Shown here one piece after another: positions 208-42,871 of a stretch of 64,000 nt of DNA. Made by a program: the position numbers and the translations under genes. The DNA is from a virus (lineage: Duplodnaviria > Heunggongvirae > Uroviricota > Caudoviricetes): IMG/VR virus record IMGVR_UViG_2548876947_000004. One strand, written 5' to 3'. The notes under the pieces were generated by a model. It was not told the origin of the DNA, made no database searches, and saw only the letters and a list, made by a program, of their open reading frames with translations. The number at the start of each line of letters is the position of its first letter. The first letter of the stretch is position 1.

Positions 208-3200
208 AAGAGCTGTGCTATGGATCTGTTTGCAGTGGAATTGAAGCTGCGAGTATTGCTTGGGAACCTTTGGGTATGCGTCCGGCCTGGTTTGCTGAAA
301 TTGAGCCTTTTCCATCTGCCGTTCTTGCGCACCGTTGGCCTCATGTCGCCAATCTTGGCGACATGACAAAACTTGCCAAAAAAGTCCTGGCAGGGGAAAT
401 CGAATCCCCTGATGTGCTGGTGGGAGGGACACCATGTTTTGCCGCGGGCCATATGGTTCTTTGTAAAAATGGTTATAAACCAATAGAAGATGTTTGCCCA
501 GGCGATTACGTAGTCAGTCATCTCGGGCGGTTACAACAAGTAAAAAGAGTTGGTTCAAAAATAGCTAATACGGGGTTACTTAATGCCGTTGGGCAGCCTT
601 TAGGTATAAGAACAACCAATGACCATCCCTTCCTGGCGGTTCGGTGGAAAGCCCAAAACACCCGGAAAAATGGCACATATTTTAAGAGAGAGTTGTTGTC
701 TGAACCGGAATGGCGAGCAGCATGTGATATGCCGGGATATCAATGGTGTGCTCTAACTAATTTCAATATTGCATCTCCAGATATTTGTTCTCGGTTCTTG
801 TCTGAAGAACAGGCTATGTATCTTGCGGGCGCTTATGTTGGCGATGGATATATTAGGAGATGGAGAGGTAAATCTAAGAAGGCGGTTGTTTTTGGCATAA
901 ATTGCCAGAAATTGAGAAAGTTTCATTGCCGCATACCAGAAAACATATTTTCCGTGGCAAGCGAAATCCGAGGGAGCATCAAAGTAACCTTGAATGATAC
1001 GTGTTATGCCAATTGGCTTAATGAACATTTTGGCGAGTTAAGCCATGCTAAGCGTATCCCTGCATGGGTGATGTCGCATCCATTGCGTCATGTGTTTTTA
1101 CAAGGCTATCTTGATACTGATGGGACACCAAGTGGTAAAGCGGGATTTAGAATTAATAGTGTTAGTCCTGCGCTTGCTTGGGGCGTTGCGGAGTTGTCAC
1201 AGACTTGTGGTTATGTTTCTTCGGTCAGCTTTATTGAAGTTGAGCCCAAAAAAGTGATTGAGGATCGCGTGGTAAATCAACGGAATTATTATCAGGTAAC
1301 AATCTGCCCGCAGAAATTGTCACGTAAATCAAGATTGGCTCATGGAATGCTTTTACGAACAGTCAAAGAGTTTAAATCGGTAGGCCTAGATACTGTATAC
1401 AACATAGAAGTCGAAGGTGATCATTCCTATATCCTCAATGGTGCGGTGGTCCATAACTGTCAGGCATTCAGTATCGCTGGATTACGTGGTGGGCTTGATG
1501 ATGAGCGTGGCGCGCTAACTTTAAAGTATGTGGAGCTTGCAAATGCAATTGACGACAAACGGGCTGAGTCATTTCTCAAACCAGCCGTTATCGTCTGGGA
1601 AAATGTCCCAGGAGTCTTGTCATCGGCAGATAACGCCTTCGGATGTTTCCTTGCCGGATTGGCTGGAGAAGATGCGCCATTCGAACCAGGTGATCGACCT
1701 GAATCAGGAAAAAGTAACGCGTTCTGGCGGTGGGATGTCAAAACCGGTTGCCATGCTCCAAAGTGGCCGCAGTGTGGTTGTATTTATGGACCGCAGCGAA
1801 AAGTGGCCTGGAGAATCCTTGATGCCCAATACTTCGGAGTGGCACAACGACGCCGACGCGTGTTTGTTGTCGCAAGTGCTCGAACAGACCTCGATCCCGC
1901 AACGGTACTTTTTGAGTTCGAAGGCGTGCGCCGGAATATTGCGCCGAGCCGAAAAAAGAAGGAAATCGCTTCCGCCATTATTGCAAATGGCGCTGCAATC
2001 AGTGGCGAAAGCCTAAATCCATGCCTACACGCTGACATGCCACCCGGTATGAAATCGACGAAAGCCGTAAACGCTTTCAGGATGGCAGCATTTGGGGAAT
2101 ATATTGACGATGAAACCGCATCGACAGTAAAGGCAAGAGATTTTAAAAATGCCACTGATCTTGCCGTTTTTAGCAGCACAGGAGCAGGTTTTTGGTCAGA
2201 AGGGCATGGTACATTGCGGGCACGTGAGCAAGAAAGCCATGAGCATCTTGTTACATTGGCTTTTCCTGAGCGTATAAGCGGTACACAACATGCTGCAACT
2301 AAGAATACTTCACCATCTCTAATGGCTAAAAATCCAACAGCTGTTTGCTATGAAGTAAGAAACGCAGAAGTAGCTGTCCGCCGTCTTACCCCTGTCGAAT
2401 GTGAAAGGCTGCAAGGTTTTCCTGATGGGCATACGTTGATCCCTACGGAAAAGCGTAAAAAAGTTAATTCAGATGAACTGGCATATCTTCGCAATCACTA
2501 TCCAGATTTAAGCGAAGAAGAGGCCGCGATGCTTGCAGCTGACGGACCGCGTTACAAAGCGATCGGCAATAGTATGGCGATACCAGTAATGTGCTGGATT
2601 GGCGATCGGATTACTAAGGCCGTATGCCGGCAGAAAGAAGGAAGTGAAACAAAAGAGCGAAAAGTTAAACCAGCGGCAGAATTCGAACGGTCCATATTCA
2701 AATGGGCTGGTGGAAAATTTGGTGTTCTGGAACAAATCTTTCGCTATTTGCCAGAAGGGAAGCGCCTGATTGAACCTTTCGTTGGTGGCGGAGCTGTCTT
2801 CATGAATGCCGGATACCAGGAAAATCTGCTAAATGATGTGAATGCTGACCTGATTAACTTTTACAAGACTCTGCAACGCGAGGCGCATTCACTTATCACT
2901 CTGGCACATCGTTTCTTCCTGGACTACAACACCCAGGAGGGATTCCTGGCAGTACGGAATGCGTTTAACAAACAAGTCTATGATGATTTACATCGCGCAG
3001 CGGCGTTTTTGTTCCTGAACCGACATTGTTTTAATGGATTGACGCGCTACAACCAGGCCGGTGAGTTCAATGTCGGTTATGGGAAGTATAAAACTCCGTA
3101 TTTCCCATTACAGGAGATGGAAGCCTTCCTCGGTGCGGAAGGGCGGTCTGAGTTTGTATGCGGTGATTTTGCAGCAGTGATTGAAGCTGCCGGAGAAGGA

Positions 3201-3491
3201 GATGTCATCTTTTGCGATCCGCCGTATGAACCGCTCCCCAATACAGAGGGGTTCACGAACTATTCCGGTCATGACTTTAAGTTTGAAGAGCAAAAACGCC
3301 TGGTGTCTCTGTTGACGGATGCTCATCGCCGAGGTGCAAAGGTACTCATTACTAACAGTGGCGCGCCAAACATCAGAGAGCTTTATCAGGACAGTGGCTT
3401 CAGAGTGGAACCTCTCTTTGCCAGACGTTCTGTGTCTTGTAAGGGAGACACTCGTGGTGTTGCTCATGACGTTATGGCAATATTGCTCTAA
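204..3491 (+). CDS. dmt: Bifunctional DNA methyltransferase (N-terminal C5-cytosine MTase fused to C-terminal Dam-like N6-adenine MTase), interrupted by an intein
   Basis: C5-MTase motifs: GGTPC...QAFSIAG (PCQ split by intein), ENVPG, QRRRRVFVV, GNS. Dam-like motifs: KWAGGK, FVGGGAV, DPPY. GTG start. Extein parts sum to 754 aa. Confidence 0.9.
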   Translation: MKELCYGSVCSGIEAASIAWEPLGMRPAWFAEIEPFPSAVLAHRWPHVANLGDMTKLAKKVLAGEIESPDVLVGGTPCFAAGHMVLCKNGYKPIEDVCPGDYVVSHLGRLQQVKRVGSKIANTGLLNAVGQPLGIRTTNDHPFLAVRWKAQNTRKNGTYFKRELLSEPEWRAACDMPGYQWCALTNFNIASPDICSRFLSEEQAMYLAGAYVGDGYIRRWRGKSKKAVVFGINCQKLRKFHCRIPENIFSVASEIRGSIKVTLNDTCYANWLNEHFGELSHAKRIPAWVMSHPLRHVFLQGYLDTDGTPSGKAGFRINSVSPALAWGVAELSQTCGYVSSVSFIEVEPKKVIEDRVVNQRNYYQVTICPQKLSRKSRLAHGMLLRTVKEFKSVGLDTVYNIEVEGDHSYILNGAVVHNCQAFSIAGLRGGLDDERGALTLKYVELANAIDDKRAESFLKPAVIVWENVPGVLSSADNAFGCFLAGLAGEDAPFEPGDRPESGKSNAFWRWDVKTGCHAPKWPQCGCIYGPQRKVAWRILDAQYFGVAQRRRRVFVVASARTDLDPATVLFEFEGVRRNIAPSRKKKEIASAIIANGAAISGESLNPCLHADMPPGMKSTKAVNAFRMAAFGEYIDDETASTVKARDFKNATDLAVFSSTGAGFWSEGHGTLRAREQESHEHLVTLAFPERISGTQHAATKNTSPSLMAKNPTAVCYEVRNAEVAVRRLTPVECERLQGFPDGHTLIPTEKRKKVNSDELAYLRNHYPDLSEEEAAMLAADGPRYKAIGNSMAIPVMCWIGDRITKAVCRQKEGSETKERKVKPAAEFERSIFKWAGGKFGVLEQIFRYLPEGKRLIEPFVGGGAVFMNAGYQENLLNDVNADLINFYKTLQREAHSLITLAHRFFLDYNTQEGFLAVRNAFNKQVYDDLHRAAAFLFLNRHCFNGLTRYNQAGEFNVGYGKYKTPYFPLQEMEAFLGAEGRSEFVCGDFAAVIEAAGEGDVIFCDPPYEPLPNTEGFTNYSGHDFKFEEQKRLVSLLTDAHRRGAKVLITNSGAPNIRELYQDSGFRVEPLFARRSVSCKGDTRGVAHDVMAILL
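435..1457 (+). mobile_element. Intein (341 aa) with LAGLIDADG homing-endonuclease domain, in frame within dmt
   Basis: Starts CFAAGHMVL (Hint block A), TTNDHPF (block B), LAGLIDADG-type YLAGAYVGDGY and FLQGYLDTDGT, ends VVHN followed by +1 Cys; splicing would restore GGTP-CQAFS. Confidence 0.85.
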
Positions 3492-5840: not shown

Positions 5841-6120
5841 TATTTGGTTGTAACACGGCGTCTGGCACATGCGTCGTTAGCGGTCTGGTGACGTTAAAGG
5901 GGTAACCTTTCCCCTAGCTCAGGCAACAAACCAGGTAGCCGGAATGTGCAAGCCCCGTTCATAGCGTCGGACTGCGGATTCACCATCTTGGCGATTCGGT
6001 GTGACAGCCGGGAAGAGTCCGGCGAATTAATCCTGATTTTCTGGTGATGACTCATATCGTTAGGAGTGATTTGAGTATGCCGATTATATCTGACATTCAG
6101 CACGCCTGGGTGGAGTGCTA

Positions 6121-7485
6121 ATGTCTGCATCCCCTCTTGAATCCATGCCAAATTCCCTTAGTGCAGAACAAGCTGTACTTGGTGGCTTAATGCTTGATAA
6201 CTGCCGCTGGGATGAAGTGGCAGATCGTATAGTTGCTGATGATTTTTATACCAGTGCTCATCGTGAAATTTTCAGTGAGATGGAGAGGTTATTAAGTCAT
6301 GGCAAACCGATTGATTTGATAACACTTGCTGAAGCACTTGAACAGAACGGTAAATTAGAACGCGCTGGTGGTTTTGCGTACCTTGCGGAGATGTCAAAGA
6401 ACACGCCCAGCGCGGCAAATATCTGTGCTTATGCGGATATCGTTCGTGAACGCGCGGTTGTTCGTGAAATGATTTCCGTCGCAAATGAAATAGCTGAAGC
6501 TGGATATGCGCAGGATGGCCGGGGCAGCAATGAATTGATGGATATGGCCGAGCGCCGCGTTTTTGAAATAGCTGAAAAACGACAAAAGAGCGGTAGTGGT
6601 CCAAAAGATATCGCCAGCATTCTCGATGCAACGGTATCTCGCATAGAAGAGTTGTTTCAGCGACCGCATGATGGTGTAACGGGGCTTGATACCGGATTTA
6701 CCGATCTCAATAAGAAGACGGCAGGACTTCAGCCGTCCGATCTCATTATTGTCGCCGCCCGCCCATCGATGGGGAAGACCACGTTTGCGATGAATCTCGT
6801 CGAAAATGCCGCAGTTCGTAACGATAAGCCCGTATTGGTTTTTAGCCTTGAGATGCCGAGCCACCAGCTGATGATGCGCTCACTGGCTTCTCTTGCACGC
6901 GTTGATCAGACTCGTATTCGAACAGGGCAACTTAACGACGAGGATTGGGCGCGGGTTTCTGGCGCAATGGGGATTCTGTTGGACAAGCAGAATATTTTTA
7001 TTGATGACTCAAGCGCCCTGACACCTACAGAGCTTCGTTCCCGCGCTCGTCGTGTTTATAAAGAAAATGGTGGTTTGAGCATGATTATGATCGACTACCT
7101 GCAACTTATGCGCGTCCCCGAGCTGCAAGATAACCGAACGCTGGAAATTGCCGAGATTTCTCGCTCACTGAAGGCGTTGGCGAAGGAATTACAAGTACCG
7201 GTGGTGGCATTGTCACAACTTAATCGATCGCTTGAACAGCGTGCGGACAAACGACCGGTAAATTCAGATTTACGTGAATCAGGAGCTATTGAGCAGGACG
7301 CAGACCTGATCATGTTTCTGTATCGCGACGAAGTTTATCACCCGGATAGCGAAATGAAGGGCATTGCCGAGGTAATTATCGGAAAGCAACGAAATGGCCC
7401 AATTGGCACGGTGAGATTGGCTTTTAACGGCCAATACTCACGGTTTGATAACTATGCCGGTGCTGACTGGCAAGAGGATTATTAA
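6121..7485 (+). CDS. ban: Replicative DNA helicase, DnaB family
   Basis: DnaB N-terminal domain (SAEQAVLGGLMLD), Walker A GKTTF, Walker B IMIDYLQLM, arginine-finger region; ATG at 6121 preferred over GTG 6115. Confidence 0.93.
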   Translation: MSASPLESMPNSLSAEQAVLGGLMLDNCRWDEVADRIVADDFYTSAHREIFSEMERLLSHGKPIDLITLAEALEQNGKLERAGGFAYLAEMSKNTPSAANICAYADIVRERAVVREMISVANEIAEAGYAQDGRGSNELMDMAERRVFEIAEKRQKSGSGPKDIASILDATVSRIEELFQRPHDGVTGLDTGFTDLNKKTAGLQPSDLIIVAARPSMGKTTFAMNLVENAAVRNDKPVLVFSLEMPSHQLMMRSLASLARVDQTRIRTGQLNDEDWARVSGAMGILLDKQNIFIDDSSALTPTELRSRARRVYKENGGLSMIMIDYLQLMRVPELQDNRTLEIAEISRSLKALAKELQVPVVALSQLNRSLEQRADKRPVNSDLRESGAIEQDADLIMFLYRDEVYHPDSEMKGIAEVIIGKQRNGPIGTVRLAFNGQYSRFDNYAGADWQEDY

Positions 7486-37355: not shown

Positions 37356-37536
37356 ATTATTTTTAATCTTAAATGATTGACAACTGACAAGTGACTTGAG
37401 TCAGAATCATCACACGCCCGGTACGGATGGATCCCTTTTCAAATATTCCATGGACGGCACCGTCTGAGTACCGGGCGCTACCTTCAGTTGTATTGCTAAG
37501 CCGCCGCTGGTGGCTTTTCTTTTTTGTAGGGGCGCT

Positions 37537-38178
37537 ATGGATAAGAAAATATGCGTTGTTTCAATGAGCGTCGGCAAACCGGCGTCAATGACTGCTGCAT
37601 GGATCAACAATGAGCTGATAATGGCTGAGCGGACCAGCTACCCTGAACGCCGCCGCGATATGGAACTCCAGCTGCTGCGCGAATTGCGAGAAAAAGAGGA
37701 AAAGGGTTTTATCGTGCTGGTGGAAGAGGAAAACAGCTTTATTACCGGTCGAGTTGGCCAGCGTGTAAGGTTGCGCGATCCCTTCATGAAGGGCAGGCCG
37801 GTACTAATTGAAGCAATGCAGATTTACAAGGAGCTGGAACGCCAGAAAGCGATCAAGTTACCGCGCAAAGAATCCGGCAAATACATCCTCCACCAAAGCA
37901 TCTTCGATTCCGAACACGACAAAAAAGGCGATGAATTTTTCAACATCAACTGGAGCGAAATAACGACAGAGCACGTTCTGACGTTGTTATGCTGCTTCGC
38001 AACGGAATATAACAACGTTGCAAGCGCCGACTACATTAGGGCAATGGCAGGAGAAGTTGATGCCCGCCAGGAATCATCGTTACTAAGCCCTCTGATTAAC
38101 ATAATTCGCGGAACCCAAACACTGGCACAAAAACGGGTGCCTAAAGGGGAGTTAACTGGAAAAGGAAATTATCTATAA
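37537..38178 (+). CDS. Hypothetical protein at the position of mat (particle maturation)
   Basis: ATG 37537 after GTAGGGG SD, in frame with ORF 37510-38178; no domain recognised. Confidence 0.5.
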   Translation: MDKKICVVSMSVGKPASMTAAWINNELIMAERTSYPERRRDMELQLLRELREKEEKGFIVLVEEENSFITGRVGQRVRLRDPFMKGRPVLIEAMQIYKELERQKAIKLPRKESGKYILHQSIFDSEHDKKGDEFFNINWSEITTEHVLTLLCCFATEYNNVASADYIRAMAGEVDARQESSLLSPLINIIRGTQTLAQKRVPKGELTGKGNYL

Positions 38179-38234
38179 ACGTCAATGCATTAGGGTATAC
38201 TTCTCCATAGAACTATAAGTAAATGGAGTAAGTA

Positions 38235-39542
38235 ATGAGCGAATATGTTGAGTTAGCATACGCTGCCGCTACAAGCAGGCTTTGTCTATTTACCGGGACT
38301 GGCTTTTCAAAGGCAGTCTCGAACGGTGAAGCTCCAACGTGGAAGGAACTATTAAAAAAAGTTTGCAGCAAAGTTCACAATGCCAAACAGTTGGAAGACA
38401 CGTTATTCCCTGATGATAAACCACCAGCACTGAGTCTTGAAGAAGCCGCACAAATACTATCTTTGAAGCTCAATATTGAGGGTAATTCGATTTATGATGA
38501 AATTGTTGACATCATATCTCCAATTCAACTTGGAGAAGACATATCAAATATAAAAGACTTTTTCCAAAAAAACTCATTCCGTATCATTACAACAAATTAT
38601 GACAAGTTGGCTGAATGCTTGGTTGGAGATGAAAGTGTACAGTCTATCACGCCCGGTCTGCCAATTCCAAAGTATCCATCCAAGGTGAAAATATATCATG
38701 TTCATGGTTCTATTGATTCGCCAAAAAATATGATTGTCACTTCAGATGATTACTTCAGATTTATAAATTCCGATACTTATTTTTCACGAAAACTTAGTAC
38801 GATGCTGCATGAAAATACAGTTGCGATATTAGGGTATTCTTTAAGCGACACAAATCTTAAAGCAATTATAAATGACTATAAAAAATTTTCGAAAAATAAT
38901 GCCCTGTGCTCTAATATCTTTTTGATATCTCGCAACAAAGTAAGTCAAGATATGAAGGATTATTACTTCTATTGCTTTGGTATAAGGGTAATTGACAATA
39001 CAGAAATAGATTGTTTCTTTAGTCGATTAAGTTATAAGATGTCTCTCATTAAAGACATCATTGAAAGAGCGCGTGAAAATATCAGAAAAGTTGTTTCAGG
39101 GGCTTATACTTATAAAGATGAATATCTTGAATTAGAGGACTCATTTTATCAAATTATATCATCAATTATATCGGAAGGTTTAGATTGGAATGATGATAAA
39201 GTCGTTTCTCTTTTCGAAAGGATAATAGAAAAAAAGCGAAAGTTAACCAGGAATGACGGAGCCTGGGAGCAATATGAACAGTTGGCAAAATGGCTTATAT
39301 ATTTTGGAAGCATCATAGAGGTTAGCAATACTAAGTATGAAAAAACATATTTAGACGCAGTTGAATTCTCGATGGGTCATATGAGTAAAGAAAGGACTTG
39401 GGGAGTTTCTTGGTATGCTTACAGAGCTTGGGAAACACGGTGGCCTGCAATAATTGCCTCAAATAGATTAATGATAAAAAACCACATTGAAACATTAGGC
39501 ACCTTGAAGGACGCCAACCTTATAGTTAAGAATATAGTGTAA
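38235..39542 (+). CDS. SIR2-family (sirtuin-like) protein with an uncharacterised helical C-terminal domain; candidate NAD-depleting defence effector
   Basis: LFTGTGFS (aa 18-25), TTNYD (119-123), HVHGS (155-159); GGAG SD; AT-rich relative to the backbone; strong terminator downstream. Confidence 0.8.
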   Translation: MSEYVELAYAAATSRLCLFTGTGFSKAVSNGEAPTWKELLKKVCSKVHNAKQLEDTLFPDDKPPALSLEEAAQILSLKLNIEGNSIYDEIVDIISPIQLGEDISNIKDFFQKNSFRIITTNYDKLAECLVGDESVQSITPGLPIPKYPSKVKIYHVHGSIDSPKNMIVTSDDYFRFINSDTYFSRKLSTMLHENTVAILGYSLSDTNLKAIINDYKKFSKNNALCSNIFLISRNKVSQDMKDYYFYCFGIRVIDNTEIDCFFSRLSYKMSLIKDIIERARENIRKVVSGAYTYKDEYLELEDSFYQIISSIISEGLDWNDDKVVSLFERIIEKKRKLTRNDGAWEQYEQLAKWLIYFGSIIEVSNTKYEKTYLDAVEFSMGHMSKERTWGVSWYAYRAWETRWPAIIASNRLMIKNHIETLGTLKDANLIVKNIV

Positions 39543-39559
39543 TTGTGGTCGATAAAAAT

Positions 39560-39587
39560 TTATCGGGCAGATAAAACTGCCCGATAA
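39560..39587. terminator. Bidirectional terminator between the SIR2-like gene and lxc
   Basis: TTATCGGGCAG-ATAAAA-CTGCCCGATAA hairpin with AT-rich flanks on both sides. Confidence 0.6.
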
Positions 39588-39588
39588 A

Positions 39589-39837
39589 TTAATCAGCATT
39601 CAGGAGCAATGCGTTATCTATGATAATCTGCTCCCATTCTTCGAATGCCCGGTCGCGGACGCCCTGGGGAACGCTGTTAGTTTTGAAATCGACGACCGTC
39701 CGCCATTTTCCGTCAGGACGGTACATGCGCAGAGCTTTACTTCCCCCTTCCCTGCGCACCTCAACGTTATGCTTATCAGCAAACTCTTGCAATGCTCGTA
39801 GCGTCCCATGCTTTACTGTGTAGTATCGCTTTTTCAA
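39589..39837 (-). CDS. lxc: Small basic protein, probably Lxc/Bof (C1 co-repressor)
   Basis: 82-aa ORF, the size recalled for Bof; 4-nt overlap with upstream gene; sequence not independently verified. Confidence 0.5.
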   Translation of the reverse strand: MKKRYYTVKHGTLRALQEFADKHNVEVRREGGSKALRMYRPDGKWRTVVDFKTNSVPQGVRDRAFEEWEQIIIDNALLLNAD

Positions 39838-40325
39838 GTTTTCTCTCCAGCCTGTGCTAAGGCTTCAACTTCCAAATCGTAAGACTCAAACTCATAGTCC
39901 TGGTCGTCAACCTCTTCAGACACTGGCAGTAAATGCCAGGCTGAGTATATCTGGCCATTATCGAAACGCTCCTGGCTGTAGAGCGTCGCGGCTATGAGTG
40001 TCAGCGCCGGGCGGTCATAACGGTAAATTTTGCGAACGTCATGGTCAACGAGACGACCGAAATTACCATAACCGTGCTCCAGTAATAATTTTTTAATTTC
40101 CGGCCAGTATGGGCCATAGCTGCGGTACAGGCGGGGATTTTTCAGTAATCGCCCGCGTAGCCCTGACAGGAAGAAATCAACGTATTCGTCTTCTGTCTTT
40201 CCTAACAACGCTGCACGGAGTACCGCCTCAAGATATGTTTTATTCGGTTTTATTGTATCAGATAGTGTGGCCATATTATGCGACGTCCGGCGAACCGGGC
40301 ATTGAAACAGAGTAATCACCTTCAT
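39834..40325 (-). CDS. Hypothetical protein upstream of lxc (ulx position)
   Basis: 163-aa ORF; true start may be the internal Met (MATLSD, 40274). Confidence 0.45.
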   Translation of the reverse strand: MKVITLFQCPVRRTSHNMATLSDTIKPNKTYLEAVLRAALLGKTEDEYVDFFLSGLRGRLLKNPRLYRSYGPYWPEIKKLLLEHGYGNFGRLVDHDVRKIYRYDRPALTLIAATLYSQERFDNGQIYSAWHLLPVSEEVDDQDYEFESYDLEVEALAQAGEKT

Positions 40326-40649
40326 CCGCTACAGTATAGTTCTGCTCAACAATCAGTTGAGCGGCATTCTCGTTAGTATTCTGGGCTAAAACATTGACGC
40401 ATCAGTGTTGTTCTGAAATGAGCGTATCACCTCTGTGCAGGTGGACAAATCCAGTAAACCACTACAGTCTTCAAAGGCTTTGAAGTTTTAGTTTGTTCAT
40501 TAGTCAGAGCCTGTACCTATTTTGTCTATAATTCAACCTATGTTAATAGTGAAAGTGAACGTATCAAAATCAAGCAATTACACAAATCGATGTACAGGCT
40601 CATTGGCACTTGAGGAATCTGATGACAATTACGCGGTAAGGTTTATGCT

Positions 40650-41597
40650 TTATAATATCGTAATTGTTGCATTTATCGTAACTATCCCGCTACCGGTATC
40701 TCCGCGTATTTTCATTGTAAGAGGTTCATCAACCCCTGCTCCAAAGGGAGGGACCACGTAATCTATTTGTTGCCCAATTGGTATATTGGACATTCCCAGA
40801 CCTTGTATTTCTACATCATACGTTCCAGTGGACACTATTTGGAATGTTAGTTTGGCGTTAATGGTTTCGTTATCTGAACTGTTAACAGCGTTTAGTGCAG
40901 TGGTTGCTGTGCAGGTGTTACCAGTAGTTGCCATACACGACAATTGGCTATCTTTGAAATTCATATTTACAGCATGGTTGTTGATCGCGGTATACGTAAT
41001 TACGAGTTTATTACGAATGTTACTTTGGTGATTGGACGTATCGTCGTCCGCGCTATATGCCCACTGGTCCTCAAGAGTTACGCTGTACGTCCCCTCTAAT
41101 GTTTCCGTTGTACTGAAAGGGCGTAATTTTATGTCGACATTAGGCCGATAGCTAGCTACTTTTCTCACTATGCCAGCACCTTGAACATCGTTGTTCTCGT
41201 ATTTTGCGTATCCTAGATTTAGTGTGCTAGCGTTATAGCCAATTTCTGCTATATATTGTGAATTGCCACTAATCGGTTTTTTGCTTCCCGGTATAACGGA
41301 GTAGGTATTTACGTTGTTCGAGTAATAGGACAGTCCCATGTATATCCTGTCAGCTCTATCGAGGGTGTATTTATAGGTGAACTCGCCTCCTCTGATACAA
41401 TCCCAGATCGACATTGTTTTTGTCGTGGACTCTCCATTAACCCATTGCGCATTCTTGTTAGTAGTAGCTCCTTGTATAAAAATGGATGTAGGACACATGA
41501 GCGATCCAGCGTGGCTGGATAGACTGGTAAGCAATATTGCTATAGATATATATTTGGTCATTCTTGGCAGTCTCATTGTTGATTTGTAAATTTTCAT
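40650..41597 (-). CDS. Secreted fimbrial adhesin/tip-like protein (last gene of fimbrial operon)
   Basis: Signal peptide (likely start at Met13 MTKYISIAILLTSLSSHA), S/T/N/Y-rich; very AT-rich codon usage. Confidence 0.4.
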   Translation of the reverse strand: MKIYKSTMRLPRMTKYISIAILLTSLSSHAGSLMCPTSIFIQGATTNKNAQWVNGESTTKTMSIWDCIRGGEFTYKYTLDRADRIYMGLSYYSNNVNTYSVIPGSKKPISGNSQYIAEIGYNASTLNLGYAKYENNDVQGAGIVRKVASYRPNVDIKLRPFSTTETLEGTYSVTLEDQWAYSADDDTSNHQSNIRNKLVITYTAINNHAVNMNFKDSQLSCMATTGNTCTATTALNAVNSSDNETINAKLTFQIVSTGTYDVEIQGLGMSNIPIGQQIDYVVPPFGAGVDEPLTMKIRGDTGSGIVTINATITIL

Positions 41598-41986
41598 ACG
41601 GGCAAAGCGCTCTTCTACTGCCCACGATATCCATCGTGCCGTATGATGTTTCCTCCGCTAGAGAACAATCTCTTCAGCCCCTCTTCGGGCATGTTTCTCA
41701 AGTCGCTGCTTGTTTTGCCCATAGCACTATCCTTGTGCTCTCGTTGCATAAAACTACACACCAAGCCAGTCAATCCACGCTCCATACGACTGACCTATGT
41801 TTTATCCGAATTGCATTATCCTCAAAATAATGACAGCACGCGTAACGGTTTGCGCCCTGTCCTGCGGTTCGAGAAAGCTCACTCTTCCGTAGCACCGATA
41901 TATTTCTGCAACTCATATTCCCTATGTGATGTTTGCGTTATAACGCGTCGTAAAACACTCTGCGTTATCCCAGCCCTTTGTCCCCT

Positions 41987-42628
41987 TTATTCCTGACGCT
42001 TCAGCAATCCGCTAACCACGTCCGCAAAAGCTTTTCCGTAGCCCTGCTCACTGGACGCCTGTATGGCTCCGTTATTCATCAAGTATTTTCCCCTGACGAA
42101 GAAAGAAGGTGTTCCTGTTACACCATAAGTTCTTGCCGCTTCCTGCTGTTTTGCCGTAAGGGCACGTACCGCCATACTGTTTTTTGCTGCATCATAGTCC
42201 CTTTCGGAAATACCGGCATCGATGAACACTTGGCGAATACTGGCTTCCGTCGTAATGTTCCTGTTTACCTGTACTGCCACAAATAGTGGTAACTCCACTT
42301 TGTCTTCCACACCCAGTACTTTTGCCACCGACCAAGCTTCTGTCAGCTCCTCTCCCATCGGCCCCATTGTGCTAACGTGATACTTAACAACTTTCTCTCC
42401 AGCTGGCAGGATTTTGTCCACTGCCTGACTGACAAAAAAACGACTGCTGAAGGCTGCACAGGGCGGACAGTAAAAGGAGAAAAACTCCACCACCGCCGGA
42501 GTATCCTCTACCGGCATCTTCAGCATGGTATAGTCCTTTCCTTCCACGGGAACTGCCGCCTGAGTATGGGGCATACAAGTGATGCCCAGCCCACAGAACA
42601 GCAGAAATATCAGTTTTCTGAACATCAT
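41987..42628 (-). CDS. Periplasmic thiol:disulfide oxidoreductase, DsbA family with CPPC active site (SrgA-like)
   Basis: Signal peptide then FFSFYCPPCAAF thioredoxin-fold motif; 213 aa. Confidence 0.75.
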   Translation of the reverse strand: MMFRKLIFLLFCGLGITCMPHTQAAVPVEGKDYTMLKMPVEDTPAVVEFFSFYCPPCAAFSSRFFVSQAVDKILPAGEKVVKYHVSTMGPMGEELTEAWSVAKVLGVEDKVELPLFVAVQVNRNITTEASIRQVFIDAGISERDYDAAKNSMAVRALTAKQQEAARTYGVTGTPSFFVRGKYLMNNGAIQASSEQGYGKAFADVVSGLLKRQE

Positions 42629-42871
42629 TAATTACCTTTCACTTTATTTATTAAAGAATAATAGAAATTGTTTTTCTGTCCGAAACACCATGCCGGATCA
42701 GTAATAATTCTGCAGCAAATGAGTTTCAAACCAGAGATAGCCCCAGAGAAAACAGTTCAGGATGAACAGAAAAATTTCTGCAAAATATTCTTTCAGCCTC
42801 CCTCCAGTTCTCTCCCCTTTTGCGTACACCTTTTTCCTGCCTACAGGTATTTGTTTCACCTTTGGCCTTCT

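Follow-up and report, generated by a model that had tools for sequence, protein, structure and literature searches.

Collapse of cellular NAD+ and abortive infection have been shown for DSR1, DSR2, ThsA and SIR2-HerA, all of which rely on a SIR2 domain. DSR2 is a single-gene NADase that is activated by the phage tail-tube protein (PMC11087589). The subject of this analysis is a SIR2-family gene in a stretch of 64,000 nucleotides (the window) from the IMG/VR virus record IMGVR_UViG_2548876947_000004 (Caudoviricetes), where it lies between the genes mat and lxc of a P1-like phage-plasmid. Its product resembles DSR2 in being encoded by a single gene, in having an N-terminal SIR2 domain of the NADase type followed by helical repeats, and in the alignment of the catalytic Asn and His residues. 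It differs in size and in the C-terminal part, as DSR2 has about 1000 amino acids (aa) and MID and CTD repeats that bind the tail tube. We consider it reasonably probable that the SIR2 gene confers immunity to phages (or to competitors) by means of one self-sufficient protein, and that it is carried as exchangeable mat-lxc cargo by P1-like phage-plasmids.

The protein appears to work most like the DSR proteins, yet it falls outside both families when their profiles are applied. NCBIfam Dsr2 scored 22.1 bits against a cut-off of 1400 and aligned to the SIR2 core only, NCBIfam Dsr1 scored 26.7 bits against a cut-off of 1400, and the PADLOC Dsr2 match covers positions 121-243 of 1222. The best PADLOC match (9.5e-27) is PDC-S25, a 'phage defence candidate' that is likewise a single-gene SIR2 protein. 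The alignment is confined to the SIR2 core (positions 127-289 of 517); the rest of the profile (517-528 positions) and the C-terminal domain of our protein do not correspond. A literature search for PDC-S25 returned one unrelated paper.

Systems with more than one component were treated in the same way. ThsA of Thoeris shares the SIR2 domain (1.5e-17 in PADLOC, aligned over 107-227 of 478 positions, and 3.6e-11 to PDB entry 6lhx in the profile search), but the signal made by ThsB is bound in ThsA by a SLOG (or Macro) domain at the C-terminus. Our protein has no Pfam domain besides SIR2_2, a TIR-type ThsB partner is absent, and the flanking genes are mat and lxc. The PADLOC profile of LmuA from Lamassu has 433 positions, which is close to the 435 aa of our protein, and can be aligned over its N-terminal SIR2 half (6.5e-16); the alignment is restricted to positions 14-224 of 433, and neither LmuB/SMC nor LmuC is encoded nearby in the P1 cassette or in the 53 loci described below. 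SIR2-HerA and PD-T7-2 were rejected, with one gene between mat and lxc and no neighbour family recurring in more than 4 of the 53 loci. The Sir2 homologue reported by Vassallo et al. 2022 is apparently that of PD-T7-2 (Sir2/HerA-like) and not a member of the family studied here. SPARSA (short pAgo) and Avs5 were rejected as neither an APAZ nor a STAND domain was found in Pfam and PADLOC scans of the protein. A sequence-only reading of the window had stated that the last ~170 aa lack APAZ, SLOG, TIR, HerA and STAND features, which agrees with the Pfam scan, and had proposed PADLOC as a check for a characterised system; the ThsA, LmuA, Dsr2 and PDC-S25 matches are confined to the SIR2 core.

The N-terminal SIR2 domain

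The N-terminal domain matches Pfam family SIR2_2 (PF13289) at aa 117-252 with 84.7 bits (8.6e-24; cut-off 24.5). The motifs GTGFS (aa 21-25), TTNYD (119-123, including Asn121) and HVHGS (155-159, including His157) are present, and G21-T-G23, T119-T-N121-Y-D123 and H157 are invariant across 55 homologues. A phmmer comparison with PDB sequences retrieved DSR2 (1e-9), KomC and ThsA. The alignment to DSR2 pairs Asn121 with Asn133 and His157 with His171, the latter being the residue changed in PDB entries titled 'DSR2 H171A'. When PDB was searched with the family profile, the same set was obtained, with all matches lying within positions up to 257. The AlphaFold2 model of the full protein, which was built from the 55 homologues, has seven beta-strands and a predicted local distance difference test score (pLDDT) of 84.4, and its best Foldseek matches are DSR2 (E 4e-13) and ThsA. 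The motif triad had been pointed out from the sequence, and its positions proved correct; the Sir2 fold, for which profile and fold searches had been suggested, was recovered by both.

Bonhomme et al. separate immune 'sirims' from deacetylating sirtuins by the GxG and xxNxD motifs, the absence of the zinc-binding Cys tetrad and a sheet of at least seven strands. All of these features were found here, together with the profile match and the catalytic His. In the whole protein, Cys occurs only at positions 17, 44, 128, 225, 247 and 260, with no CxxC pairs, and the tetrad is thus absent. The N-terminal domain is a defence-type SIR2 domain with intact catalytic residues, and by analogy the protein would be an NAD+ hydrolase.

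The PLSDB copy bears the product name 'SIR2 family protein', which in current RefSeq has become 'SIR2 family NAD-dependent protein deacylase' (e.g. NZ_CP091679.1, NZ_CP110512.1). As the sirtuin zinc module is missing, the deacylase label is doubtful and probably wrong.

The C-terminal alpha-solenoid domain

The C-terminal 180 residues (256-435) are all-helical and, when modelled alone, reach a pLDDT of 91.7 and a predicted TM-score of 0.83. Fold comparison returned generic HEAT/ARM-like alpha-solenoids only. There was no sequence or profile match in Pfam, PADLOC or PDB (PDB searches match the SIR2 part only) and nothing significant in BFVD. The Pfam family BBH37 was rejected with 15.6 bits, below its cut-off of 27. 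The domain had thus been described appropriately, from the letters alone, as helical and free of recognisable matches, and the AlphaFold model that had been proposed for it is confident.

A phmmer search with the C-terminal domain against 1.84 billion cluster representatives gave 76 matches, all of them located at about residues 255-435 of proteins with 420-480 aa or representing short fragments. SIR2_2 precedes the domain in each of the eight divergent full-length matches that were checked. Because the domain always occurs at this place or in fragments, and with SIR2_2 in front of it, it is exclusive to this SIR2 family and not shuffled among effectors. Mean identity is lower in the C-terminal half (45%) than in the SIR2 half (62%), and there is an invariant core of Trp344, 353, 393, 399 and 403 with Asn410-Arg411. 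Alpha-solenoid repeats are a type of fold common in protein-binding scaffolds, which we count in favour of a regulatory role; the domain may act as a sensor.

Distribution of the family and search for a partner gene

We found 683 homologues at E < 1e-3, mostly full length. Among the top 120, nearly all have 431-441 aa, full-length coverage and 50-60% identity, and those with a source name are from Gamma-, Beta- and Alphaproteobacteria. The gene is thus no rarity but belongs to a widespread and well-conserved family found in many proteobacteria and labelled 'SIR2 family protein' in databases.

In a genome scan restricted to one genome per species, 53 full-length loci were obtained from 53 species, including Desulfobacter, Nocardioides and metagenome-assembled genomes (MAGs) of Treponema and Caenarcaniphilales, and the flanking open reading frames (ORFs) within 6 kb on each side were clustered. 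No neighbour family occurs in more than 4 of the 53 loci and none is found at a constant position. The copies of Pseudoalteromonas and Paraburkholderia have no common neighbour. Since no neighbour is conserved across the 53 species, the SIR2 gene is a single-gene unit, and it is often found beside other defence genes. The 148 nearest neighbours include type I restriction-modification (R-M) genes, dGTPase, a reverse transcriptase (RT) with TIR, retron RT and NERD+UvrD, as well as PD-T7-5, PDC-S05, PDC-S66, TIR and Mrr genes. Taken as a list of neighbours, this is the pattern of a resident of defence islands. The absence of a partner gene, and the backbone genes on both sides of the window copy, had already been seen from the sequence.

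Beyond Proteobacteria, full-length members with 33-50% identity occur in Nocardioides marinus (L119) and in MAGs of Actinobacteria (L129), Treponema (L143) and Caenarcaniphilales (L136), which points to a wide horizontal spread of this one-gene unit. In chromosomes of E. coli, a copy with 58% identity stands alone at the edge of a CPS-53/yfdP-type prophage (L002-L005, gene at 6001-7311). It directly follows the prophage integrase, by narP/ccm, in three of the four places listed, and in the fourth no adjacent integrase was called. This is the classic position of a 'moron'; in one strain, the next gene codes for an AIDA-type autotransporter.

The mat-lxc interval as an exchange hotspot

The backbone around the SIR2 gene is of P1 type, with c1, coi, cra, cre, c8, ref and mat followed, after the SIR2 gene, by lxc and ulx. 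The upstream neighbour is mat, and lxc and ulx are located downstream in convergent orientation. In reference P1 (NC_005856), the gene order downstream of mat is res, mod (with IS5), lxc, ulx and darB, so that the EcoP1I genes have the position which the sequence-only reading had assigned to them. GC content is 0.30-0.38 over positions 38200-39600, compared to 0.45-0.55 on both sides, which bears out the AT-richness that had been remarked upon.

We fetched 80 P1-like IMG/VR loci via the Lxc gene, and the interval could be measured in the 73 which have both flanks. About 11 interval states were distinguished (Table 1), and SIR2 family genes are present in 12 of the 73 loci. For the contents, one or two representatives were scanned per size class, and the other loci were assigned by identical interval length or by tblastn.

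Table 1 Contents of the mat-lxc interval in P1-like loci (L015-L094). Representatives of uncharacterised cassettes are L043, L051, L050, L057, L081, L053 and L038.
Interval length (bp)	Content	Loci
36-46	empty	8
588	132-aa lipoprotein-like ORF	2
879-922	GNAT acetyltransferase (~200 aa)	9
1051-1061	PIN_12 protein (316 aa), PDC-S34-like C-terminus	6
1197	DUF2971 / PDC-S31-like (336 aa)	9
1273-1278	CapRel	9
1409-1417	SIR2 family	12
1705	YaaC-like (346 aa) + nucleoside 2-deoxyribosyltransferase-like (169 aa)	3
~1750-1773	AraC-type regulator + EAL protein	3
~3570	JukA-like + HTH + antirepressor-like	4
~5090	EcoP1I res/mod	8

The CapRel cassette is 100% identical to the copy of Salmonella phage SJ46 and thus represents CapRelSJ46, a validated defence protein of the fused toxin-antitoxin type that is switched on by a phage capsid protein (PMC9712102). 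CapRelSJ46 and EcoP1I res/mod occupy the same mat-lxc slot in sister phage-plasmids as the SIR2 gene does in the window, and CapRelSJ46 also resembles our protein, with its putative sensor, in combining an effector domain and a sensing domain in a single protein. They are unrelated as proteins and in their chemistry, as CapRel pyrophosphorylates tRNA and EcoP1I is a type III restriction system.

All measured cassettes of unassigned classes, as well as the representatives of SIR2 allele C and GNAT, are AT-rich (GC content 0.32-0.43). Each cassette that was examined, the 'empty' allele included, has its own GC-rich hairpin just 5' of the lxc stop codon, and the 3' end of mat (the last ~40 nucleotides) co-varies with the class of the cargo. 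It follows that cassettes are swapped by recombination in the flanking genes. The SIR2 gene has the properties of such cargo: it lies between the mat and lxc stop codons, is AT-rich and is followed by a 3' hairpin of its own, and in other elements its place between the conserved flanks is taken by different cassettes. The mat-lxc interval is a real exchange hotspot, and with res/mod and the validated CapRelSJ46 among its contents the proposal of a defence hotspot was well placed. The variability of this interval was noted before by Venturini et al. 2019, who give res/mod the name 'RD-1' among the variation hot-spots of P1-like plasmids and do not read it as a defence site (PMC6906374).

Alleles, prevalence and selection

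Three SIR2 alleles occur in the slot, namely allele A (found in the window, with copies of 97-99% identity elsewhere), allele B (~86% aa identity) and allele C (57-58% aa identity). Alleles A and C have an almost identical 56-bp leader with the Shine-Dalgarno site and different 3' hairpins. When A (window 38235-39542) was compared to B (L173, 1501-2808), the first ~90 codons were identical even at synonymous sites (rate of synonymous substitutions, dS, of 0), and dS was mostly ~0.8-2.4 from codon 136 onwards. This jump implies that recombination had a breakpoint within the gene, around codons 90-135. The overall ratio of nonsynonymous to synonymous rates (dN/dS) is 0.15, with 0.09 for the SIR2 half and 0.15 for the C-terminal half. 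The pattern is one of mosaic recombination and purifying selection. No positive selection on the C-terminal domain was found in the A versus B comparison, where the difference between the two alleles is explained by mosaic recombination. A chance ORF can be dismissed, given 683 homologues and this dN/dS value.

PLSDB contains 699 plasmids with lxc-ulx. Allele A or B occurs in 61 of them and allele C in 66, together ~18%, and a P1-type res was found in 108 PLSDB plasmids. Among complete E. coli genomes, allele A or B is present in 64 of 5426, with 66 of the 67 copies on plasmids.

Coordinates, local signals and neighbouring genes

The features of the locus are collected in Table 2. The gene had been given the span 38235-39587 in the sequence-only reading; its 435-aa ORF was correctly recognised, but the ORF ends at 39542 and the longer span takes in the 3' hairpin. 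The Shine-Dalgarno site that had been noted is found just ahead of the start codon. A match to PHROG 7567, a family without known function, spans the protein from end to end (7e-244).

Table 2 Features of the SIR2 locus and its flanks (window positions).
Feature	Position	Strand	Basis and remarks
SIR2-family gene	38235..39542	+	ORF list; 435 aa + stop codon, ATG start
Shine-Dalgarno site GGAG	38225..38228	+	sequence reading; 6 nt 5' of ATG
N-terminal SIR2 (SIRim-type) domain	38235..38999	+	aa 1-255; GTG21-23, Asn121, His157
C-terminal all-alpha domain	39000..39539	+	aa 256-435; family-specific alpha-solenoid
Hairpin, 14-bp stem, between convergent SIR2 gene and lxc	39557..39590	.	folding + sequence
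Candidate sigma-70 promoter, weak, speculative (TTAACT, 16 nt, TATAAA)	38152..38179	+	sequence reading
mat (maturation control), left hotspot flank	37537..38178	+	ORF; annotation of pKFu022_2 + P1
lxc, right hotspot flank	39589-39837	-	ORF; P1 annotation
ulx, right hotspot flank	39834-40325	-	ORF; P1 annotation

The hairpin between the SIR2 gene and lxc has a folding energy of -23.9 kcal/mol (z = -7.4 against shuffled sequences), and 2 nucleotides of the lxc stop codon fall within its 3' arm. It had been called a strong bidirectional terminator. The strength of the fold stands, and a bidirectional role is plausible. Only on the minus strand (the side of lxc) does a run of T come after it, and a consensus terminator scan made no call for this hairpin; for these reasons the case for a terminator is stronger with respect to lxc/ulx than to the SIR2 gene.

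A further terminator-like hairpin with a T-run (AAGCCGCCGCTGGTGGCTT TTCTTTTTTG) is located at window positions 37498-37516, just upstream of the start of the 213-aa mat. This start is the choice of the annotation pipeline PGAP; the hairpin falls inside the longer mat coding sequence of the P1 reference (2716-3468).

On the right-hand side, the ulx ORF has 163 aa, compared to 146 aa in P1 and most plasmids. The alignment of lxc-ulx to most plasmids ends at 712 of 737 nucleotides, and therefore the 5' end of ulx has been replaced along with a swap of darB for fimbrial genes. In place of the P1 anti-restriction gene darB, an F18/Pef-like chaperone-usher fimbrial operon is found at window positions 40326-47100 on the minus strand. 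It codes for an adhesin-like protein (315-aa ORF), a DsbA-like protein, a minor subunit, a chaperone, an 813-aa usher and a major subunit. The best matches, with 92.9% identity, were to P1-like plasmids of Escherichia albertii that are ~96-100 kb in size, and the portal gene resumes at 48703.

Proposed mode of action and alternative explanations

If the SIR2 gene is an immunity factor of the kind proposed, its SIRim-type domain would be the effector, which upon activation would hydrolyse NAD+ so that cellular NAD+ collapses and the infection is aborted. The C-terminal alpha-solenoid would be the regulatory part and would keep the NADase off until a cue of infection is received. The switch might be operated by direct binding of a phage-made protein, comparable to the helical repeats of DSR2 and the tail-tube protein, or the alpha-solenoid might drive oligomerisation. 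The simplest cue would be a directly bound phage protein, by analogy with DSR2 and the tail tube and with CapRel and the capsid in the very same slot. The proposal draws its support from the identity of the SIR2 domain and its intact catalytic residues, the stand-alone status of the gene, the hotspot with its defence context, and purifying selection. It agrees with the proposal made from the sequence alone, and the computational checks suggested there all turned out in favour of that proposal. The trigger and the abortive outcome are extrapolated from described systems, and we likewise infer that the gene would be expressed in the lysogen. The effector and the logic are familiar, and a specialist would expect a defensive role of such a gene; the compact architecture and the C-terminal domain are undescribed.

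Several observations weigh against this proposal. The SIR2 gene starts 56 bp after mat with no terminator in between. Ahead of mat, the Omat/Pmat/LPmat region has 2 mismatches to P1 over ~120 nucleotides, so that mat retains the C1 operator, the sigma-70 promoter and the late promoter known from P1. As a promoter of its own, the SIR2 gene has only the weak candidate TTAACT-16-TATAAA, which is located in the cassette-specific 3' end of mat and was not called by a consensus promoter scan. Given the conserved mat promoters, the missing terminator and the weak promoter candidate, expression could occur in the lytic phase rather than in the lysogen. A search of 50,697 phage genomes in INPHARED by megablast and tblastn found no full-length homologue, the matches being weak, limited to the SIR2 core and from Gram-positive phages. 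No specific similarity was found between the C-terminal domain and the repeat region of DSR2, and with neither shuffling onto other effectors nor positive selection overall, the 'sensor' reading of this domain has weaker support than in some other systems. PADLOC has no dedicated model for the family that combines SIR2 with the alpha-solenoid, and literature searches, with incomplete coverage, returned no paper and no experiment on it. The family is not mentioned in Pfeifer and Rocha 2024, in the iLund4u and Mordret preprints, or in a domain-centric screen.

The arrangement behind mat leads to the alternative that the SIR2 gene serves the lytic cycle of the phage itself, either in host take-over or as a counter-defence that destroys NAD-derived immune signals, and that it is transcribed from the C1-repressed and late mat promoters. 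The short distance to mat, the lack of a terminator, the weak promoter candidate and the near-identity of Omat/Pmat/LPmat to P1 would all fit. Yet the family is mostly chromosomal, with 53 contexts outside P1 that are often next to defence genes, and the slot also holds R-M and CapRel genes, both of which act in lysogens. The gene is present in no sequenced free phage of the INPHARED set, and an enzyme that destroys NAD+ during the phage's own lytic cycle would cut the phage yield. We attach a small probability to a lytic role.

It is improbable that the SIR2 gene is one component of a multi-part system, an orphan effector similar to ThsA or LmuA whose partner (a signal generator, an ATPase or an antitoxin) is encoded elsewhere on the phage-plasmid or by the host. 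Many SIR2 effectors do need partners, and the partial PADLOC matches to ThsA and to the LmuA profile of nearly the same length point in this direction. These matches are limited to the SIR2 domain, though, neither a SLOG nor a Macro domain was found in the Pfam scan, and no neighbour is conserved across the 53 species. In P1-like elements, moreover, members of the family are exchanged as a cassette of one gene, and the flanks are identical.

We give a similarly low rating to the idea that the gene is mainly devoted to competition between mobile elements or to plasmid maintenance, and less to defence against lytic phages; it might keep out related phage-plasmids, for instance, or kill cells from which the element has been lost. 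In its place P1 has res/mod, which also acts there as an addiction module (PMC6906374), and the hotspot is specific to the plasmid-prophage; but neither the ORFs of the window nor the 53 loci include an antitoxin-like partner, and the family is common in chromosomes, outside plasmids. That the protein is a housekeeping sirtuin with ordinary NAD-dependent protein deacylase activity, as its PGAP name has it, is very improbable and a classical sirtuin was rejected, since the match is to SIR2_2 and not to a classical sirtuin, the Cys tetrad that holds zinc and is used by sirtuins for substrate binding is missing, the closest structures are the NADases DSR2 and ThsA (with KomC in addition by sequence), and the gene is AT-rich cargo of a mobile hotspot.

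Beyond the single gene, we see an even balance for and against a wider interpretation. The family of ~434-aa proteins with SIR2 and alpha-solenoid domains would then be a distinct, undescribed single-gene anti-phage system, with the C-terminal domain as a new kind of trigger sensor. The mat-lxc interval would serve as a hotspot for defence in general, much as the hotspots of P2 and P4 do, and more candidate systems would be found in the other uncharacterised cassettes (PIN_12, DUF2971, YaaC-like with deoxyribosyltransferase-like, GNAT, lipoprotein, and AraC with EAL).

Significance

The value of the SIR2 gene lies in its tractability, in its prevalence among P1-like phage-plasmids and in the catalogue of hotspot contents that accompanies it. 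If it is an immunity factor as proposed, it would provide a small SIR2 NADase effector, with 435 aa from one gene, for studying how such enzymes are held off and switched on, and its sensing or regulatory domain would be less than one-fifth the size of that of DSR2. The RefSeq product name 'protein deacylase' would have to be corrected. The position of res/mod in P1, a classic model phage, would be a site for the exchange of defence cassettes, among them type III R-M and CapRel, with several further candidates. About one-sixth of the P1-like phage-plasmids of E. coli may then confer immunity by NAD depletion, as a form of lysogenic conversion. This would be of relevance to phage therapy and to the competition between mobile elements, for a group of phage-plasmids that is better known for spreading resistance genes.

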